Virus record (IMG/VR): IMGVR_UViG_2541047898_000006
Length of the DNA: 36,610 nucleotides
Reading direction: 5' to 3' (one strand)
Source of the DNA: a virus
Lineage: Duplodnaviria; Heunggongvirae; Uroviricota; Caudoviricetes
In this document: in pieces, positions 4,233-33,990 of the stretch
Layout: every line of letters begins with the position of its first letter
How positions within the stretch are numbered: the first letter of the stretch is position 1
The notes under the pieces: model-generated
Databases searched by the model: none
Told to the model about the DNA's origin: nothing
What the model saw: only the letters and a program-made list of their open reading frames with translations
Position numbers and translations under genes: made by a program

Positions 4233-5086
4233 GCACCATCCTGAAATGGGCGGGAAATAAAACCGCCATTATGCCAGAACTGAAAAAATACCTTCCTGCT
4301 GGCCCGCGACTGGTTGAACCTTTCGCGGGTTCCTGTGCTGTGATGATGGAAACGGATTATCCCAGCTATCTGGTTGCGGATATTAATCCTGATTTAATCA
4401 ACCTCTATAAAAAGGTTGCCGCTGATTGTGAATCGTTTATATCTCGCGCCAGAGTTTTATTTGAGATCGCAAACAGGGAGGTGGCTTATTACAACATAAG
4501 GCAGGAGTTTAACTGCTCAACTGAAATTACTGATTTCATGAAAGCGGTATATTTCCTGTATCTTAATCGTCACGGTTACCGTGGTTTATGTCGCTATAAC
4601 AAGAGCGGGCATTTCAACATCCCCTACGGTAATTATAAAAATCCGTATTTCCCTGAAAAAGAACTTCGCACATTTGCAGAAAAAGCCCAGCGAGCAACGT
4701 TTATCTGCGCCAGCTTTGATGAAACGCTGGCGATGTTGAAGGCGGGAGATGTGGTGTATTGCGATCCGCCGTATGACGGTACGTTTTCCGGCTATCACAC
4801 TGATGGTTTCACTGAAGATGACCAGTATCACCTGGCATCCGTTCTTGAACATCGGTCATCAGAAGGACATCCAGTCATTGTTTCTAACAGTGACACATCC
4901 CTGATCCGTTCGCTGTATCGCAATTTTACTCACCACTATATCAAGGTAAAACGCAGCATCGGTGTGGCAGCTGGCGAGGGTAAATCAGCAACAGAAATCA
5001 TTGCTGTTTCCGGGCCGCGCTGCTGGATGGGATTTGATTATTCGCGTGGCGTGGATAGTTCTGCCGTGTACGGAGTACGTGCATGA
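4229..5086 (+). CDS. dam: DNA adenine methyltransferase (Dam family, GATC-type)
   Basis: Motifs [32 protein letters not shown] and VVYCDPPY closely parallel E. coli Dam. Start at the ATG overlapping the upstream stop, with GGAGG 6 nt upstream. Confidence 0.9.
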
Positions 5087-7497
5087 GTCATGCCGATATG
5101 AACAACTGCTGCGGCTTTAACGAGGCTGCTGCAGCATTCTCATGGAACAGCCCGAAAAAGGCCATTAACCCTTATCTGGACCCGGCGGAAGTTGCGCCGG
5201 TTTCTACGCTTTCAAACCTGATCACTCTGTACGCTGCCGATAACGAGCAGGAACAGTTGCGCCGCGAGGCACTGAGTGATCAGGTCTGGGAGCGTTATTT
5301 CTTTAATGAATCACGTGATCCTGTCCAGCGCGAAATGGAGCAGGATAAGCTCATTAGCCGGGCAAAGCTGGCGCATGAGCAGCAGCGTTTTAATTCAGAC
5401 ATGGTCATTCTGGCGGACGTCAACGCCCAGCCTTCCCATATCAGCAAGCCGCTGATGCAACGTATTGAATACTTCAGCAGCCTGGGCAGGCCAAAGGCTT
5501 ATTCCCGCTATTTACGTGAGACGATTAAGCCATGTCTGGAACGACTGGAGCATGTACGCGACAGTCAGCTATCTGCATCTTTTCGCTTTATGGCAAGCCA
5601 TGAAGGGCTGGACGGCCTGCTGATCCTGCCTGAAATGAGTCAGGATCAGGTGAAACGCCTGTCCACCCTGGTAGCTGCGCATATGAGTATGTGCCTTGAT
5701 GCAGCTTGTGGTGATTTGTATGCCACCGATGACGTTAAGCCAGAAGAAATCCGCAAGACATGGGAAAAGGTGGCAGCGGAAACCCTGCGTCTGGATGTCA
5801 TCCCACCTGCGTTTGAGCAACTCCGTCGGAAAAGAAACCGCCGTAAACCCGTGCCCTATGAACTCATTCCGGGTTCGTTGGCGCGTATGTTGTGTGCCGA
5901 CTGGTGGTATCGGAAATTATGGAAGATGCGTTGTGAATGGCGGGAAGAGCAGTTGCGTGCTGTCTGCCTGGTCAGCAAAAAAGCATCCCCCTATGTCAGC
6001 TATGAAGCAGTGATGCATAAACGTGAGCAGCGCCGTAAGTCGCTGGAGTTTTTCCGTTCTCATGAACTGGTGAACGAAGACGGCGACACGCTGGATATGG
6101 AAGATGTGGTAAACGCCAGCAGCAGCAACCCGGCGCATCGCCGCAATGAGATGATGGCCTGTGTTAAAGGTCTGGAGCTTATCGCGGAAATGCGCAGTGA
6201 CTGCGCCGTTTTCTACACTATCACCTGTCCGTCGCGTTTCCATTCCACGCTCAATAACGGCAGACCCAACCCGACCTGGACAAACTCGACGGTAAGACAA
6301 AGCAGCGACTATCTGGTCGGCATGTTTGCTGCATTTCGTAAGGCGATGCACAAAGCCGGATTGCGCTGGTATGGCGTGCGGGTGGCTGAGCCGCATCATG
6401 ACGGTACAGTTCACTGGCACCTGTTGTGTTTTATGCGCAAAAAAGACCGCCGCGCCATCACTGCATTACTGCGTAAGTTTGCCATCCGTGAAGACCGCGA
6501 GGAGCTGGGCAATAACACTGGGCCGCGCTTTAAGTCTGAGTTGATTAACCCGCGCAAAGGAACGCCGACAAGCTACATCGCGAAATATATCAGTAAGAAC
6601 ATTGACGGGCGTGGTCTGGCTGGCGAGATCAGCAAGGAAACGGGTAAATCTCTGCGTGATAACGCTGAATACGTTAATGTCTGGGCGTCTCTGCATCGTG
6701 TTCAGCAATTCCGCTTCTTTGGCATTCCGGGGCGTCAGGCTTACCGTGAACTGCGATTGCTGGCTGGTCAGGCGGCAAGGCAACAGGGTGACAAAAAAGC
6801 AGGTGCTCCGGTACTGGATAACCCGCGCCTTGATGCCATTCTGGCTGCTGCTGATGCTGGCTGTTTTGCCACCTACATTATGAAGCAGGGCGGCGTGTTG
6901 GTTCCCCGCAAATATCACTTGATCAGAACCGCTTATGAAATCAACGAAGAGCCGACAGCCTATGGCGATCACGGCATTCGTATTTATGGCATCTGGTCAC
7001 CCATTGCAGAGGGCAAGATCTGCACTCATGCAGTGAAGTGGAAAATGGTTCGTAAGGCCGTTGACGTTCAGGAGGCGGCAGCCGACCAGGGCGCTTGCGC
7101 CCCTTGGACTCGTGGCAATAACTGTCCCCTTGCTGAAAATTTGTACCAACAAGGGAAAGACAAATCAGCTGATGGAGATACCAGAACGGATATCACTCGC
7201 ATGGATGACAAGGAGTTGCACGATTACCTGCACAGTATGAGCAAAAAAGAGCGCCGGGAACTGGCAGCAAGGTTACGCCTGGTGAAACCGAAACGGCGTA
7301 AAGACTACAAACAGCGAATTACAGACCATCAGCGACTGCAGCTCGTGTATGAACTGAAGTCCAGAGGATTTGATGGCAGCGAGAAAGAGGTCGATTTGCT
7401 CCTTCGCGGTGGCAGTATTCCGTCAGGAGCAGGCCTGCGTATCTTCTATCGGAACCAGCGTTTGCAGGAAGATGATAAGTGGCGGAACCTGTATTAA
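5083..7497 (+). CDS. A: Replication initiation protein A (rolling-circle nickase, P2 gpA-like)
   Basis: 804-aa ORF at the gpA position with a YIAKYISKN-type active-site Tyr motif; translationally coupled to dam. Confidence 0.9.
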
Positions 7498-7820: not shown

Positions 7821-7993
7821 ATGGATCTTCCCAGTAGTTTTTCGAAACTGAAAACAACCGAGTGAAAGTTACGACACTTGAGATTTTCACTTGGGTTATA
7901 ATCAGAATACTTGTTTTCGTCCACAAATGTACATGCCATGCATTAATGTGGTGATAGCTTTCAATTTTTACTAAATGGTTTCAATTGCTTCTT

Positions 7994-8539
7994 ATGAATC
8001 ATGTAATGTTAGATATAGAAACATTGGATGTTGAAAAAACAGCTTATATCCTTTCAGTTGGTGCGGCTTTTTTCGTGCCGGAGACTGGCGAGATTGGTCC
8101 GGGTTTCTATCAAGTTATTTCGCTTGATCATGAACAAGCAGGCAGAACCATTGCCCCCTCTACTGTAAAGTGGTGGATGAATCAAAGTACTGAAGCTAAA
8201 AACGAAAATTTTGATGGCACTAAGGACCTTTTAGAGGTTCTGAATGAATTTGTGGCATTTATTCATCATAATCGTACTGGCCGAGTAAAAGTGTGGGGAA
8301 ACGGGAAAGAGTTTGACTGCACGATCATGCATCATGCCCTGTTACAGGCGGGTCTGGATTGCCCATGGTCATTCAGAGATACTCTTGACGTTAGAACCAT
8401 CTTAGCACTTGGTGAAAGCAAAGGAATTTTTTCTCATGCTGATAAAAATTTCACTGGCATTAGGCACACAGCATTCGATGATGTTTTATTTCAGATCGCA
8501 CAGGTTTCTCACATCTATATGAATTTAAATAAAAAATAA
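7994..8539 (+). CDS. DEDDh-type 3'-5' exonuclease (DnaQ-like)
   Basis: N-terminal DIETLD (Exo I motif) and C-terminal HTAFDD (H-x4-D) motifs. AT-rich. Start ambiguous (TTG 7985, ATG 7994 or ATG 8006). Confidence 0.7.
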   Translation: MNHVMLDIETLDVEKTAYILSVGAAFFVPETGEIGPGFYQVISLDHEQAGRTIAPSTVKWWMNQSTEAKNENFDGTKDLLEVLNEFVAFIHHNRTGRVKVWGNGKEFDCTIMHHALLQAGLDCPWSFRDTLDVRTILALGESKGIFSHADKNFTGIRHTAFDDVLFQIAQVSHIYMNLNKK

Positions 8540-8554
8540 ATATAGGACTTAGCT

Positions 8555-9466
8555 ATGGATTGCTTAGATGTAACCTATTGGACTGAGCTAGATGTTTTCG
8601 CACAGTATCCTGTTGGTGCTCGCTCTAAGGCATTGGTTATTTCCCCTGATGTTGCCCCCCATGGTATCAAAGCATCGTGGCCGTATCTTTTTAAGAGAAG
8701 TATTAAAAAATACCCAGATCAATTTTGGTGTGAGATCGTTGCCTACAGGATTGGATTGCAGCTTGGTTTTAATGTCCCCAAAGCAGTTCCTTCGTTAAAG
8801 ACTAATGATTTGGGGCATACGTTTTGCGGGGCCCTCATTGAGTGGTTTCATCATAAAGATTATGAGAAATTTGCTCCCGCTGGTGATTACTTTGTTCGAA
8901 GAGATCCAAATTTTGATCGTGAGAAAGGAGCTAAGCATTCCATTGAAGGGCTGAGGATTATCGCGAAAGCTCTTAAAGTTGACTATGTTGAGTGGTTGGA
9001 GAATATGGCTCTCTTTGACGCAGTAATAGGTAATACAGATAGACATCAAGAAAACTGGGGGTTTATCTTCTCACCTTTAACCAGCGAGTGTCAGCTTGCA
9101 CCATTTTTCGATAATGGTACGAGCTTATGCTACGAACGTTTTCCGGAACATGTTGCTGATTGGACCGATCATAGACTCAGGGAGCATGTTAGCCGGGGAA
9201 AGCATCATTTGCGTAAGACTCTGGGCAAAGATGAGTATCAGAGATTAGGTCATTTAGAGTTAATCAAAGAACTTTGTGATAAAAAAGAAGAATTAAAACA
9301 GCGGGTAGCTGAAAGACTGGCTCGTTTGAACCATGACTTTTGGGACTCAACTTTTGCGGAGTTGACGGAAATAAACTGCCCTGTTCCGCTGACTAGAGAA
9401 CGTGCTGCATGGATTGTTCGTGTAACAAACATGCGTATTGAACTGATTAAAGGTGTTACTTCATGA
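8555..9466 (+). CDS. HipA-like Ser/Thr kinase core (HipT-like, lacks the HipA N-terminal subdomain)
   Basis: Aligns by eye to E. coli HipA motifs: ATP-binding loop PVGARSKAL (HipA VAGAQEKTA), EIVAYRIGLQLGFNVPKA (HipA LLLAKELGLNVPDA), catalytic loop IGNTDRHQENWGF (HipA IGATDGHAKNFS), Mg-binding LAPFFDNG (HipA LTPFYDII). AGGA SD; 15 nt after the exonuclease stop. Confidence 0.7.
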   Translation: MDCLDVTYWTELDVFAQYPVGARSKALVISPDVAPHGIKASWPYLFKRSIKKYPDQFWCEIVAYRIGLQLGFNVPKAVPSLKTNDLGHTFCGALIEWFHHKDYEKFAPAGDYFVRRDPNFDREKGAKHSIEGLRIIAKALKVDYVEWLENMALFDAVIGNTDRHQENWGFIFSPLTSECQLAPFFDNGTSLCYERFPEHVADWTDHRLREHVSRGKHHLRKTLGKDEYQRLGHLELIKELCDKKEELKQRVAERLARLNHDFWDSTFAELTEINCPVPLTRERAAWIVRVTNMRIELIKGVTS

Positions 9467-10167
9467 CTATCTTAATAGAAAAAATTCCCATGCCAAGTAG
9501 GCTCTTACTGACATGGCAACCGACCGACGGCGGCTCTCGCTATGTCGTTGGTGAACTTCTTCAAGATGAGTCTGAAGGCTACGAGTTTAATTATCTTACG
9601 GATAGCAAAGATTTTGCTAAAGCTGTGGATAAAGGCTTTCACGGTTTTCCTGCTTTTGACATAAAAGTTACGACTCATCGCAAAGACGTTATGCAAACCT
9701 TTTCAAGAAGGTTACCCTCTAGGAAAAGAGAAGATTTTGCCGATTACTTGCTGACGTTTCGTCTTCCTGCTGATTTTAGAGAGAATGACTTCGTTTTGCT
9801 CGCTTGTACTGGCGGAAAAGTGGCTAGTGATGGTTTTTATTTTGTCCCAGACTTGTCTTCTATTCGGCCACCTTTTGATTATGTCATGGAGGTCGCCGGA
9901 ACGAGACACATGATTAAGGAAGGGCGTCTAGCTCTTGACGAGATATCAATTGGTGATGAAGTCATATTGCGCAATGAAGATACCAATACTGTTGATCCGC
10001 TGGCCATATTAGTAACGAAAAACGACAATCATCTAGGATATGTCAACAAGGCATTGTGCGCCGCATTACGAGATCTTGGTAAAAACCATGATATCAGTGG
10101 AGTGGTCGTACGTAAAAATGGCTCTTCGGATAGGCCTTTGATTTATGCAAAAGTATCTGTTAGATGA
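9463..10167 (+). CDS. Two-domain protein: HipA N-terminal-like (HipS-like) domain fused to a C-terminal HIRAN domain
   Basis: Start overlaps the kinase stop (ATGA). N-terminus LLLTWQPTDGGSRYVVGELLQDESEGYEFNY and FSRRLPSRKRED parallel the HipA N-terminus (LVTWMNNQRVGELTKLANGAHTFKY; FDNLLPDSPIVRDR). C-terminus GDEVILRNEDTNTVDPLAILV...LGYVNKALCAALRDLG...GVVV matches the HIRAN pattern (E-V-L-R-x-P-x-N-x-x-D-x-N-A-I-x-V ... G-[YH]-[VL]-x-K-x-L-A-x-x-L). Confidence 0.55.
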   Translation: MTILIEKIPMPSRLLLTWQPTDGGSRYVVGELLQDESEGYEFNYLTDSKDFAKAVDKGFHGFPAFDIKVTTHRKDVMQTFSRRLPSRKREDFADYLLTFRLPADFRENDFVLLACTGGKVASDGFYFVPDLSSIRPPFDYVMEVAGTRHMIKEGRLALDEISIGDEVILRNEDTNTVDPLAILVTKNDNHLGYVNKALCAALRDLGKNHDISGVVVRKNGSSDRPLIYAKVSVR

Positions 10168-10475
10168 TGCATGTTTATTCATGCTTGCTAGTGATGCTGC
10201 ATTTATAGAGTCTGTCAACTATGGAGATTTTTTCGTCTCATGCAACTACATTAAATTACCATTAAGTGGGTTGACGTTGCGGGGGAAGCATTACACGTCA
10301 GTATTGGTGCGTCTGAAGTGTCATGCCGAAAAGGTATGAAAAAGCCGCTTGGTAACATAACTATTCGCAATGATGTTGTAGGAAGCGAACTGGAAATGAT
10401 AGCAATGGATGCTGTTGATGTAGTGTATGTCTATGCTGCATGAGTTTGCATGAACGTTTGAGGCTCGTTTTTGTT

Positions 10476-10502
10476 AAGGCCCGCCAGAACTGGCGGGCTT
10501 TT
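10476..10502 (+). terminator. Rho-independent terminator ending the cargo operon
   Basis: GC-rich hairpin GCCCGCCAG / CTGGCGGGC followed by TTTT on the plus strand. Confidence 0.6.
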
Positions 10503-10547
10503 GCTCATGTCATGCAGGTGCATGAAAACCACTTCATAAAGCGGGCA

Positions 10548-10566
10548 GGCGTGGCGGGGATACGAG
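10548..10566. other. Putative cos (cohesive end) site GGCGTGGCGGGGATACGAG
   Basis: The first 13 nt match what I recall as the conserved start of P2/186 cohesive ends (GGCG[A/T]GGCGGGGAAAGCA.). It lies between the hotspot operon and the portal gene and is flanked by GGGGATACG direct repeats (10556..10564 and 10578..10586). Confidence 0.4.
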
Positions 10567-10653
10567 CGCGCGCTGATGGGGATACGGTGTTTTTAGTAAG
10601 GTTATGAGGTAGAATTTGACGCGGTTTTTTTAAGCATATTGAGGTGTAAATAG

Positions 10654-11199
10654 ATGGATGCTATTACTGGATTATTGGATTTTTTTAGAAAGATTCCAAC
10701 GGCACTTCTTGTAGCTATTACATGTGGTTTAAGTTTGATCCTTTTTTTGCCAGAATCTTTAGCTTCTAAAGTTGCGGTTGATGGTTTCCGTAAAGAATAT
10801 AGAAATTTCATAGGACCAGCATTTTTACTGGCTGTCTCTTTTTTAGTTGCAAGAGTATATCAGTTTTTTCATGACCTATATGGCGATAGACAAAGGCACA
10901 AAGTACGTATCTCTTATTTGGAGAAGCTAACTCCTGAGGAGAAGGGATACCTCTGGTCTTATATAATTGATGGCGAAAACTCACTAATGTGTGGTCCTGA
11001 AGATGGTGTTATGGGGGGGTTGGTTGCTAAGCGCATAACCTATAGAGCTGCAAACGTGGGCAGTATGATTGACGGATTCGCTTTCAATTTGCAGCCGTGG
11101 GCTCGCGAGCATTTACAGAACAACACTCATTTATTAGAAGGAGCGGTCGGTAGGGCAATGACACCGGGTGAGAAACTAGGATTCAGGCGTAGATTTTAA
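10654..11199 (+). CDS. Membrane protein (two N-terminal TM helices plus cytoplasmic domain); possible superinfection-exclusion-type cargo
   Basis: 181-aa ORF with GAGGTG SD. Hydrophobic segments TALLVAITCGLSLILFL and GPAFLLAVSFLVARVY. Sits between the putative cos and the portal stop, where P2 has only about 100 bp. Confidence 0.55.
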   Translation: MDAITGLLDFFRKIPTALLVAITCGLSLILFLPESLASKVAVDGFRKEYRNFIGPAFLLAVSFLVARVYQFFHDLYGDRQRHKVRISYLEKLTPEEKGYLWSYIIDGENSLMCGPEDGVMGGLVAKRITYRAANVGSMIDGFAFNLQPWAREHLQNNTHLLEGAVGRAMTPGEKLGFRRRF

Positions 11200-11243
11200 C
11201 CAGTCGCACACAGGCGATGCTTGACTGGTTAGACAGGGATAAT

Positions 11244-12281
11244 CTATTCAGCGTTCAACTGGTAGGGGTCAAAAGATATTATTGGCTCATTTAACCATTC
11301 GTTAAGTTCTTCAAGTCGCTTTTGTAAAGGAATTAACTCATTTCGCACAAAAACGCGGCTGGCCTTTTCCACATCCCCAAAACCTCCAACATTATTTGGC
11401 ATAATCCCCATCATTTGCGGCGGCACGCGGTGCGCCGCCATCATGTCATCCCGGCTCACGTTCTTGATGTTTAGAAACTCATCCTTTGCTGCGACCTCTG
11501 ACAACGGGATGATCTGAAGCCCATCCTTTTTGCCGTTAGGCGAGTACATAAACAGGTTGCGGAAGTTGCCCGGACCTTTGGCGCTTTTCATCGCGTTGCG
11601 GAGGTTGTTCACGTCCTCCTGGTTCTGCGCAGCATCGGTCATGTACATGATGAAGCCTGCATGACTGCCGTTAATGTAATACTTGCGGCGGAACAGCGTG
11701 GCGGACTCGTTGAGCAGGGCTGACGGAATGGCAGAAAGATAACCGGGCAGGCCGTAGATCTCCTGGTTAATGTCCGGTTCCATCAGATGAAAAATGCTTC
11801 CTTTCGTGAACTGATACGGCTGGGTTGTCATACCGTATTGCACAAACCAGTAGGTATCCAGGTCTAACCCGCGTCGGGTGTATTTTGCTAGTGCAGGCTC
11901 AAGGGCGATAACTTCACCGAAGCGGTTCGTGCGTTTCTCCAGGTAGGCGTTACCAAATACCAGATAGTCCTGCACAAAACGCGAAAAAGCTTGCTGGCTG
12001 AGCAGAGGATGAGGGATATAGGTACTGGTCAGAATGTTGCACTTTACTGCAATCGGGGAACTGTGATGCACGGCAGCGCGGAAGGTGCGCGCCAGTCCGT
12101 CAAAGCTGACGGGCGGCTCATACCAACGGTCCATCTGTACGCATTCCACATAGTCCAGTAATTCTCGGCGGTCCAGAACAGGAACGGGATCGCCGAAGCT
12201 GAATGCTTCGGCTGAAGTCTGGCTTTTATGCTGGTTCTGGTTCGTCGACGCAGTGCGGTTTTTCTTACTCTTTCCCATCAA
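11244..12281 (-). CDS. Q: Portal protein (gpQ)
   Basis: 345 aa on the minus strand, size and position as P2 gpQ, overlapping the terminase gene. Confidence 0.88.
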   Translation of the reverse strand: MMGKSKKNRTASTNQNQHKSQTSAEAFSFGDPVPVLDRRELLDYVECVQMDRWYEPPVSFDGLARTFRAAVHHSSPIAVKCNILTSTYIPHPLLSQQAFSRFVQDYLVFGNAYLEKRTNRFGEVIALEPALAKYTRRGLDLDTYWFVQYGMTTQPYQFTKGSIFHLMEPDINQEIYGLPGYLSAIPSALLNESATLFRRKYYINGSHAGFIMYMTDAAQNQEDVNNLRNAMKSAKGPGNFRNLFMYSPNGKKDGLQIIPLSEVAAKDEFLNIKNVSRDDMMAAHRVPPQMMGIMPNNVGGFGDVEKASRVFVRNELIPLQKRLEELNEWLNEPIISFDPYQLNAE

Positions 12282-14044
12282 AAAATCTCCACAATATTGC
12301 TGGTATTGGCGGACTCGCCCTGCAGCGGTTCGTTAAACAGTGCGTGCATCGTTGCCCAGGCCAGATCGGCGTGGCTGGCTTCTTCGCTGCGGCTGGCTTC
12401 ATAGGTTGGGCGGTTGCCACTGGCGGTGGTTGCGCGACGGATTGCCATGAATGACTGCGCAATGTCGGTGTGCCCGGCGTCAAACTCCAGACGGCGGTGG
12501 CTGATAATGTCGTAGGCCTTGAGTACCAGGGCATTTTTAACATTGGGGTTGTAGACAAACTCCCGGACGGCAGGAAAGAACGCTTTCACGTTCTCATAAA
12601 CCCCGTGACCAACGCCGGTTGAGTCGATACCGATATAGGTCACGTTGTACTGTTCGGTCAGTTTTTTGATGGCGTCAGCCTGGGCGCGGAAGTCCATCCC
12701 GCGCCACTGGTGACGCTCAAGAATGCGGAACTTACCGCCCGGCACGGCTGGCGGTGCCACCACCACGCATCCGGCGCTGTCGCCGTTCTGCGTACCTTTT
12801 GCCGGGTCATAACCGATCCACACTTCGCGCCAGCCAAACGGGCGCAGGGCCAGTGCATGAAAGTCGGTCCATACTTCCCAGCTGTCCACCATGCACGCCT
12901 GCAGTTCGCTGAGCGGGAACACGGACGCGAGATCGTCCACGAACTCGCACATCAGCAGGTTCTGGTATTCGTCCGGGCTGTACTCCATGCGCAGCTGGTC
13001 GAGGTCGAACAGGTTACAGCCGCCGCGCACCGCATCTTCCACGGTGACTATCTGGCGGTATTGCCCGTCTGCGCACAGCAGGCCGGGGGCCAGATTGCTG
13101 TGGGACAGGTCGATGTCCACCTTGTCAGCTTTGTTGCGTCCACGGTTGAACAGCGCACCGGACCAGAACGGATAAGCACTGTGGGTCAGGCTGGATGGTG
13201 TGGAAAAATAGGTCTGTCGCCATTTCTTGTGAATAGCCATACCGGAAGCCACTTTGCGTAGCTCCTGAAATTTCGGTATCCAGAAATATTCATCCAGATA
13301 CAGGTTGCCGTGATAACTCTGGGCAGTGCGGGCATTGGTGCCGAGGAAGTAAAGTGTGGCCCCGTTAGGAAGCACCATCGGATCGCCTTTCAGCTCCACC
13401 TCCACTTCTTTGGCGAAGTCGATGATGTACTGCTTAAAGACGTGGGCCTGTGCCTTACTGGCGGAAAGAAAAATCTGGTTACGTCCGGTAAGCAGAGCGT
13501 CAATCAGGGCTTCACGGGCAAAGTAAAAGGTCGCGCCGATCTGGCGTGACTTCAGCAGGTTGCGGATGCGGTTGGTTTTTCCGGCTTCCCACCAGTGGCG
13601 CTGGTAGTTGAACATGGAGGAATGGAAGATTTCTTCCAGCTTCTCAATCTGTTCATCGGTGAAGACATTCTTTTCCGGTTGACGGCGCGGGCCTTTGTTG
13701 CGGTTGGCGACGTTAGGGTTTAAGTCGGCTTCGTTGCCGCCATTGTTAAACTTGCCGATCCGCGCGTGGCGCTCCGACTGGCGCGCCAGCAGGTCAATTT
13801 CTTTAAAGTCTTTCCCTTCTTTGTGCTCCTTCATAATGAGCTGGCAGTAGCGTGCGGCGGTGGTGAGCTGCATCTGATCCAGCGGCCCATAGTCACCCCA
13901 CTTGTCGCGTTTTTTCCAGCTGTGAACGGTTGCAACTTTCTCGCCCAACATTTCAGCAATGCGGGCGACGCGGTATCCCTGAAAGTACAGCAGCATGGCC
14001 TGCCGACGGGGATCGAGATCTGCGGGTGTCAGTGTGGTGTTCAT
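12278..14044 (-). CDS. P: Terminase large (ATPase) subunit (gpP)
   Basis: 588 aa, divergent from the capsid operon; size and synteny as P2 gpP. Confidence 0.88.
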   Translation of the reverse strand: MNTTLTPADLDPRRQAMLLYFQGYRVARIAEMLGEKVATVHSWKKRDKWGDYGPLDQMQLTTAARYCQLIMKEHKEGKDFKEIDLLARQSERHARIGKFNNGGNEADLNPNVANRNKGPRRQPEKNVFTDEQIEKLEEIFHSSMFNYQRHWWEAGKTNRIRNLLKSRQIGATFYFAREALIDALLTGRNQIFLSASKAQAHVFKQYIIDFAKEVEVELKGDPMVLPNGATLYFLGTNARTAQSYHGNLYLDEYFWIPKFQELRKVASGMAIHKKWRQTYFSTPSSLTHSAYPFWSGALFNRGRNKADKVDIDLSHSNLAPGLLCADGQYRQIVTVEDAVRGGCNLFDLDQLRMEYSPDEYQNLLMCEFVDDLASVFPLSELQACMVDSWEVWTDFHALALRPFGWREVWIGYDPAKGTQNGDSAGCVVVAPPAVPGGKFRILERHQWRGMDFRAQADAIKKLTEQYNVTYIGIDSTGVGHGVYENVKAFFPAVREFVYNPNVKNALVLKAYDIISHRRLEFDAGHTDIAQSFMAIRRATTASGNRPTYEASRSEEASHADLAWATMHALFNEPLQGESANTSNIVEIF

Positions 14045-31700: not shown

Positions 31701-31867
31701 CCGTTCACCGGATTGAGGCACCGACGCAGATCATCATCCAGACGCAGCCAGGACAAAGTGCGCAGGATATTGCGCGGGAGGTGGCACGCCAGCTTGATGA
31801 ACGTGAACGCAGGCTGAAGGCAAAAGCCAGGAGTAACTACAGCGATCAGGGGGGATACGACGCATGA
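28790..31867 (+). CDS. T: Tail tape measure protein (gpT)
   Basis: 1025 aa, N-terminal coiled-coil-rich region, central hydrophobic repeats, position after E/E'. Confidence 0.9.
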   Translation: MSDNNLRLQVILNAVDKLTRPFRAAQASSKELAGAIRNSRDALKQLNQAGNSLEKFRKLQADNKKLGDRLNYARQKANLLSSELEAMEQPSQRHLVALGRQTLAVQRLEEQQKYLQKQTALVRAELYRAGISAKDDAGATARLARETSRYNQELSKQEARLKRLGEAQRRMNAARASYARSLEVRDRIAGAGATTTAAGLAMGTPVMAAVKSYTSMEDAMKGVAKQVNGLRDDNGNRTARFYEMQDAIKAASEQLPMENGAVDFAALVEGGARMNVANPDDSWEDQKRDLLAFASTAAKAATAFELPADELSESLGKIAQLYKIPTRNIEQLGDALNYLDDNAMSKGADIIDVMQRLGGVADRLDYRKAAALGSTFLTLGAAPEVAASAANAMVRELSIATMQSKSFFEGMNLLKLNPEVIEKQMTKDAMGTIQRVLEKVNALPQDKRLSAMTMLFGKEFGDDAAKLANNLPELQRQLKLTAGNDALGSMQKESDINKDSLSAQWLLVKTGAQNTFSSLGETLRQPLMDILYTVKSITGALRRWVEANPELTGTLMKVAAVVAAVTVGLGTLAVALAAVLGPLAVIRLGFSVLGIKTLPSVTVAVTRTSSALSWLAGAPLALLRRGLASSGNAAGLLTAPLSSLRRTASLTGNVLKTVAGAPVALLRSGLSALRAVAVMFINPLAVLRGGLAAVGAVLRVLASGPLAMLRVALYAISGLLGALLSPIGLVVTALAGVALVVWKYWQPITAFLGGVVEGFKAAAGPISAAFEPLMPVFQWIGDKVQALWGWFTDLLAPVKSTSAELQIAAAMGRRFGEALAEGLNMVMHPLDSLKSGVSWLLEKLGIVSKEAAKAKLPESVTRQPPVTVNADGKVMMPSGGFPSWGYGFAGLYDSGGYIPRGQFGIVGENGPEIVNGPANVTSRRNTAALAAVVAGMMGVAAAPAELPPLHPLALPAKGGKAMVSRAAAVPPVHRIEAPTQIIIQTQPGQSAQDIAREVARQLDERERRLKAKARSNYSDQGGYDA
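30529..30935 (+). repeat. Degenerate tandem coding repeats within the tape measure gene (PLA[VL]LRxGL units)
   Basis: At least five copies of a motif encoding (G/A/N)PLA(V/L/M)(I/L)R(x)GL in the translated sequence. Confidence 0.5.
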
Positions 31868-33777: not shown

Positions 33778-33841
33778 TCATTAAAAAATAGTGCTTCTAA
33801 CATCATGATTTTAAAAGGCATAAATTTCAGGCAACAAAAAA

Positions 33842-33878
33842 CCCATCAACCTTGAACCGAAATGGCGGGGTTGATGGG
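33842..33878 (-). terminator. Rho-independent terminator (minus strand), probably for host ybjL
   Basis: Perfect 10-bp inverted repeat CCCATCAACC / GGTTGATGGG with a 17-nt loop, followed on the minus strand by TTTTTT (plus-strand AAAAAA at 33836..33841). Confidence 0.5.
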
Positions 33879-33990
33879 CTCCACAAAATGGGGACATCAA
33901 AGAAAAGCAGTGGCACTAATTAAGACTGATGCCCTGCGGAAAAGTTCTGCGGTTGTGCAAAAAAATTTCATTTTCAGGGCAACTTCAGTT

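Follow-up and report, generated by a model that had tools for sequence, protein, structure and literature searches.

A P2-family cos site and a SieB-family gene in the cos-adjacent cargo slot of a Fels-2-like prophage

The stretch of DNA analysed here (36,610 nt in length, hereafter the window) represents a prophage of the Peduoviridae, Fels-2/P2-like in type, and our reading of the region next to its portal gene—to which we give a probability of about three in four—is that a P2-family cos site is followed by the left-arm half of the gpA–gpQ hotspot, holding a sieB module. The accessory region lies to one side of the cos site and the portal gene to the other, and the portal and terminase genes are adjacent (Table 1). 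Such an arrangement of cos and SieB is already known, and the finding is real but ordinary, because the cargo slot is an anti-phage hotspot that has already been documented.

Table 1. Features of the cos region and its surroundings, in window coordinates.
Feature	Position	Strand	Remarks
gpA	5083..7497
Right-arm cargo	7985..10167	+	Same hotspot; GC ~0.40 vs 0.52–0.57 in backbone
Rv2179c-like 3'-5' exonuclease	7985–8539	+
HipA_C-like kinase	8555–9466	+	Overlaps HIRAN gene
HIRAN-domain protein	9463–10167	+
Right-arm flank of cos	10419..10547	+	Conserved; backbone, not cargo
TGCAT motifs	10437–10441, 10447–10451, 10519–10523	+
Rho-independent terminator-like hairpin	10476..10505	+	GGCCCGCCAG..CTGGCGGGC followed by UUUUGCU
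ATGCA (inverted TGCAT)	10512–10516
cos cohesive-end 19-mer	10548..10566	+	GGCGTGGCGGGGATACGAG; predicted 5' overhang, left end of virion genome
CGCGCGC	10567..10573	+	Sole left-arm bases conserved after cos; cargo junction directly after
Second GGGGATACG copy	10578..10586	+	Exact repeat; part of sieB cargo module
Candidate sieB promoter element	10601..10617	+	GTTATGAGGTAGAATTT; -10-like TAGAAT at 10610–10615
Shine–Dalgarno (SD) sequence GAGGTG	10641..10646	+	7 nt ahead of ATG
sieB-family gene	10654..11199	+	181 aa; PF14163; between cos and portal gene
Hairpin	11195..11233	.	In 44-nt spacer between convergent sieB and portal genes; without T-run
Portal gene (P2 gpQ homologue)	11244..12281	-	PF04860; right boundary of cargo slot
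Large terminase gene	12278..14044	-	Scaffold and capsid genes beyond it

For comparison, we took the reference genomes of P2 and 186, in which the cohesive ends are annotated, joined the right end of each to its left end and aligned the junctions gap-free to the window. We also surveyed 160 loci anchored on portal homologues (80 from species genomes and 80 from IMG/VR contigs), which represent the closest portal relatives in the two collections and not a random sample. Their portals share 60–97% identity with that of the window, and the cos core could be located, at ≤2 mismatches, in 135 of the 160.

The 19-mer agrees with the cohesive ends of P2 at 14 of 19 positions and with those of 186 at 15 of 19, its initial 13 nt being those of 186, and the flanks are collinear. 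On the right arm (-40..-1) the window matches P2 at 29/40 and 186 at 31/40 positions, and on the left arm (+1..+12) at 10/12 and 7/12; from +13 on, similarity to both phages is at background (10/29 with each over +13..+41). The resemblance to P2 and 186 cohesive ends that had been suggested by a sequence-only reading is thus borne out, and the assignment gains further strength from the mapped cos sites of P2, 186 and P4, with which the region is collinear. As in these sites, the 19-nt element starts with GGCGWGGCGGGGA, is preceded by a common right-arm flank (AAAACC..AAGYGGGC), is followed by (T/C)GCGCGC on the left arm and has the same placement relative to the accessory region and the portal gene; the final bases of the overhang differ, reading ATACGAG in the window against AAAGCAC in P2 and AAAGCAT in 186. 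The core of the P2, 186 and P4 sites was reportedly described by Ziermann & Calendar in 1990, and P4 is packaged by the P2 terminase.

An identical 19-mer was present in 105 of the 135 portal-anchored loci. It is also the ‘cos site’ published for the Salmonella phage SEN8 (Felsduovirus), whose GenBank record begins there and whose authors put the site down through annotation, not end-mapping. As a predicted P2-family cos, 10548..10566 is very well supported by homology. That the cos-like sequence is an uncleaved relic in a defective element is very improbable, given that the plaque-forming phages RE-2010 and SEN8 have the same 19-mer and flanks and that long, apparently unbroken ORFs encode terminase, portal, scaffold, capsid and the tail module.

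Around the overhang, 10419..10574 is the only DNA of this region common to other P2-like phages, with a per-position conservation of 0.8–1.0 from about -145 to +7 in 136 loci. Its right-arm part is dense in TGCAT (4–6 sites per 140 nt against ~0.27 expected), and the motifs stand at the same offsets from the first cos base in the window, P2, 186 and P4 (-111, -101 and -29, with an inverted copy at -36); several to many relatives have a further copy at -124. Among 107 distinct right arms, the motif was found at -29 in 99, at -36 in 94 and at -124 in 87, and none of the left arms examined had one in its first 140 nt. These motifs are better candidates for terminase recognition than the GGGGATACG repeats discussed below, and a statement of TGCAT as a fixed-offset recognition repeat was not found in the literature examined. 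The same flank contains a terminator-like hairpin, an inverted repeat conserved across loci with an RNA fold of -21.5 kcal/mol (z -4.3), which our promoter and terminator scan passed over. It would close right-arm transcription ahead of cos, and so strong a hairpin in the conserved right arm makes read-through from upstream cargo unlikely. We envisage a packaging signal made up of a conserved right-arm block of ~125 nt (the TGCAT motifs, the terminator hairpin and AAAACC..AAGCGGGCA), the 19-mer itself and CGCGCGC alone on the left arm, with terminase making staggered nicks at 10548..10566.

Across 111 non-redundant cargo starts, information content is 1.1–1.9 bits at +1..+7 and no more than about 0.5 bits from +8, and CGCGCGC is found in P2, 186 and P4 as well. 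Backbone conservation stops 7 nt past the cohesive end, so that cargo begins right beside the nick site, which is consistent with the idea of cos-end recombination raised in passages of Rousset et al. 2022 (PMC9122126). A G-run at +11..+14, considered as a conserved cos element, was rejected: its information content is ≤0.2 bits and the ancestral empty spacer begins in the same way, so that residual backbone is the likelier origin.

Empty cos–portal spacers of 148–159 nt were seen in loci L011, L020, L025, L030 and L136; these have a common sequence, CGCGCGCAACGGGGTGAAATGG..., and a bulged GC-rich hairpin with a T-run beside the portal stop. They probably represent the ancestral state. The window is without their terminator, from which it follows that the sieB module replaced the whole spacer. 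A count of portal-proximal terminators made with a detector for hairpins plus T-runs was dropped, as bulged stems in known empty slots had been missed.

Between the 19-mer and the portal stop the window has 677 nt, and over the 135 loci this interval ranges from 104 to 3499 nt (median 1657). In P2 and 186 it is 167 and 176 nt, somewhat longer than the figure of about 100 bp that the sequence-only reading gave for P2. P2-sized spacing (≤260 nt) is confined to 11 loci, the remaining 124 of the 135 having larger intervals with cargo, so that the position can hardly be called unusual, as had been proposed. The slot is low in GC and highly variable: there were 133 distinct sequences among 136 loci, and their ORFs fell into 121 clusters, nearly all pointing from cos towards portal. 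Representative proteins matched defence families, either known or candidate ones (retron RT II-A, AbiU/AIPR, bSEFIR, ShosA, PDC-M03A/B, PD-T7-4 and PDC-S49), and SEN8 has two genes in the slot. Where gpA could also be placed (111 loci), the cos-to-portal arm was occupied in 105 (95%) and the gpA-to-cos arm in 74 (67%), with cargo on both arms in 69; Fels-2-like phages carry cargo preferentially on the left arm of cos.

The published record describes the same position. Passages of Rousset et al. 2022 place a defence hotspot of P2, gpA–gpQ, adjacent to cos, note that it holds non-defence genes such as partition systems, and list in Table S5 ‘hypothetical + SieB + DinI’ arrangements with the protein WP_021548667 (PMC9122126). 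This is the protein annotated in our E. coli locus L169, between DinI/cos and portal. Extracts of Askora 2017 describe a cosL–gpQ hotspot in phiRSY1, report from Dodd & Egan 1996 that retrons Ec67 and Ec86 replace the DNA from cos to a terminator in a 186-related prophage, and also cite Nakayama 1999 (PMC5694545). The cargo position is documented by these three studies (Rousset 2022, Askora 2017, Dodd & Egan 1996), and the slot surveyed here is like their hotspot in having variable cargo that abuts cos and in carrying diverse defence systems. We take 10574..11243 (about +8 to the portal stop) to be, in all likelihood, the left-arm half of the gpA–gpQ accessory and defence hotspot, whose published definition in these passages does not separate the two arms. 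P2 carries its cargo (old, tin) on the other arm of cos, whereas the window has cargo on both arms. The Salmonella phage RE-2010 has an AIPR gene in exactly the same cos–portal slot, behind an identical cos. P2 Old/Tin and RE-2010 AIPR/AbiU are prophage-encoded exclusion genes beside cos, as the window gene is predicted to be; their proteins and mechanisms are unrelated to SieB.

Two exact copies of GGGGATACG lie in the cos region, 22 nt apart, at 10556..10564 and 10578..10586 (a third is at 31851). The sequence-only reading had taken them for direct repeats flanking cos and possible terminase recognition elements, neither of which holds. The pair does not flank cos, since the 19-mer itself contains the first copy; the second lies 11 nt downstream of the 19-mer. 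Among the 111 non-redundant cargo starts, the second copy was found in the window-type allele only: a divergent sieB allele in the same slot (~75% DNA identity) has GGGGGGCGC in its place, RE-2010 has an identical cos and diverges directly after CGCGCGCTGAT, and both RE-2010 and SEN8 are without the copy. Since information content beyond +7 is no higher than ~0.5 bits, GGGGATACG is no conserved recognition element, and its second copy is probably either fortuitous or residual backbone. These results bear on an alternative account, in which the cos–portal interval is an exceptional cargo site and the GGGGATACG repeats are terminase elements framing cos. The presence of two exact 9-mers so close together might suggest it, as might the short non-coding intervals of P2 and 186. 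Against this, most related loci have more than 260 nt there, the left arm is occupied oftener than the right, the position is described in the literature, one copy falls within the overhang, the other has no conserved counterpart in the divergent sieB allele, RE-2010 or other cargos, and conservation stops at +7. We regard this account as very improbable, its claim of an unusual position being already refuted, and retain a P2-family cos next to a hotspot.

The 181-aa product of the gene in the slot matches the Pfam SieB model (PF14163) almost end to end at 79.7 bits (E 2.2e-22, cut-off 26); lambda SieB and P22 SieB score 103.5 and 101.4 bits against the same model, and all 185 homologues of the 181-aa protein fall in PF14163. 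Its homology to characterised SieB rests on this profile, because pairwise comparisons are weak: BLASTP against lambda SieB gave E = 2, which is not significant, and hhalign against P22 SieB gave E 0.002 at 13% probability, with LTPEEKGYL opposite LTLGERAYL of P22, so that an LTxxExxYL motif aligns. There was no PADLOC, PHROG or NCBIfam match to the protein, and in a set of 50,697 phage records the only tblastn matches were to SPbeta YopH and to an Akkermansia phage.

Like the P22 and lambda proteins, the window SieB is ~180–190 aa long with N-terminal membrane segments and is encoded by a lone prophage gene that converges with essential genes or lies next to them. Unlike them, it is encoded in another type of phage and at another locus, not in the pL operon, and it falls into a distinct subfamily that is highly conserved and has DDGVMxGL and GFAFNLQPWAREYL among its invariant motifs, together with LTPEEKGYL. 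Members of this ~180-aa subfamily are 50–60% identical across Vibrio, Pseudomonas, Halomonas and others, and it has 411 representative clusters at E ≤ 1e-10; at E ≤ 1e-3 there are 1,097. P22 has an in-frame internal start whose product, Esc, is a self-antagonist; this is specific to P22 and does not define the family. The window gene has no Esc-like internal start, there being no ATG in codons 2–111 and no SD sequence for the TTG codons at 8, 28 and 32.

In the cos–portal slot itself, sieB was present in 24 of 5,426 complete E. coli genomes, as two alleles, and the E. coli copies at this position are annotated by PGAP as ‘super-infection exclusion protein B’; a 70%-identity allele occupies the same slot in a Citrobacter-type prophage. 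More remote members occur as single genes within small islands, where their neighbours are HipA, an SLFN-like helicase, CcdAB or ResIII helicases, and no conserved partner gene was found among the islands examined.

The gene had been described as encoding a protein with two transmembrane segments and its own SD sequence. The ORF and the SD stand, and of the two segments one is strong (residues 14–33, mean Kyte–Doolittle hydropathy 2.4) and the other marginal (52–70, ~1.59). The topology prediction that had been called for gave, in an AF2 model built on a 113-sequence alignment (mean pLDDT 86.8), predicted helices at residues 16–31 and 43–90, so that both hydrophobic segments are helical and the second membrane helix reaches about residue 90. 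The predicted architecture is of an N-terminal helix, two membrane helices and then a compact cytoplasmic alpha/beta domain; an earlier model from 28 sequences had left the C-terminal domain at pLDDT 40–60, which the 113 sequences resolved.

Expression signals were sought on either side of the gene. Two sieB alleles with ~75% identity in their flanks have the 17-nt element GTTATGAGGTAGAATTT in identical form, and the 70%-identity allele has a similar TTATGAAGTACACTT. The element has no consensus -35, and a scan for sigma-70 promoters gave no call on the + strand; judged from its conservation, the TAGAAT element is a probable promoter of sieB's own. Downstream, the hairpin in the spacer to the portal gene folds at -15.6 kcal/mol on the + strand and -16.5 on the - strand (z ~-3.4), keeps its stem CCAGTC/GACTGG in both sieB alleles and is a possible bidirectional terminator. 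No known antisense RNA or other RNA family was found in the region.

The slot would then hold a one-gene module: a probable promoter of its own, an SD sequence, a SieB-family inner-membrane protein of 181 aa and a hairpin. Extracts of PMC10883804 describe SieB as a prophage-expressed agent of abortive infection against heterologous phages, in which macromolecular synthesis stops mid-cycle. By analogy with P22 and lambda, the lysogen most likely makes the SieB-family protein, which would abort lytic development when heterologous phages superinfect and so protect the lysogen population, a picture drawn from family membership and genomic context. We consider an abortive-infection or exclusion role somewhat better than an even bet. 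The guess of such a function in the sequence-only reading therefore stands at the level of the family, through a Pfam model common to lambda and P22 SieB; the molecular mechanism and the targets of the 181-aa protein can presently be suggested from the family only.

Another reading would give the protein no anti-phage function here and make it a membrane-associated factor in the control of prophage lysis or induction, a means of self-protection or a neutral passenger. It could appeal to the subfamily's absence from PADLOC, to the non-defence genes known from the hotspot and to the fact that no experimental record for any member of the ~180-aa subfamily was found in the literature examined. We nevertheless judge it unlikely: the family is common to two characterised SieB proteins, defence systems dominate the slot, distant homologues lie in islands beside the HipA, CcdAB and helicase genes listed above, and the identity maintained across Vibrio, Pseudomonas and Halomonas indicates strong purifying conservation. 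An exclusion function thus remains our preferred interpretation of the gene.

The other arm of cos carries low-GC cargo of the same hotspot, within which the kinase and HIRAN pair matches the PADLOC candidate system PDC-M03A/B. That pair occupies the left-arm slot in loci L146 and L018, from which we conclude that modules move between the arms of cos. At the right end of the window, host DNA contains a full-length RybB sRNA gene (33833–33911, - strand; Rfam RF00110, 105 bits), and the prophage is therefore apparently integrated next to rybB; no tRNA was found in the window.

Two further ideas, which we advance jointly and only tentatively, as rather doubtful in combination, are that the P2-family packaging signal is strongly asymmetric and that the SieB subfamily is a membrane-anchored Abi effector. 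The right-arm TGCAT motifs (-124, -111, -101, -36, -29) may be terminase elements, with 7 bp needed on the left. Were this true, it would account for the replacement of cargo as far as the nick itself, and the asymmetry would fit cos-end-initiated recombination as the mechanism of cargo exchange. The ~180-aa subfamily, for its part, may act as a single-gene effector that senses a phage product through its cytoplasmic winged-helix-like domain. Neither idea was found stated in the literature examined.

The value of the finding lies mainly in correct annotation, which sets the genome ends for such prophages. Modest gains beyond this are the preference of cargo for the left arm (95% vs 67%), the stop in conservation at +7 and the fixed-offset TGCAT motifs, and the cos-side results may be of use in the design of a minimal cos cassette and of cargo-swapping vectors. 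The SieB subfamily to which the 181-aa protein belongs is a worthwhile target for defence assays, and a gene that looked odd in this position is one of the usual residents of the defence hotspot next to cos in P2-like phages.
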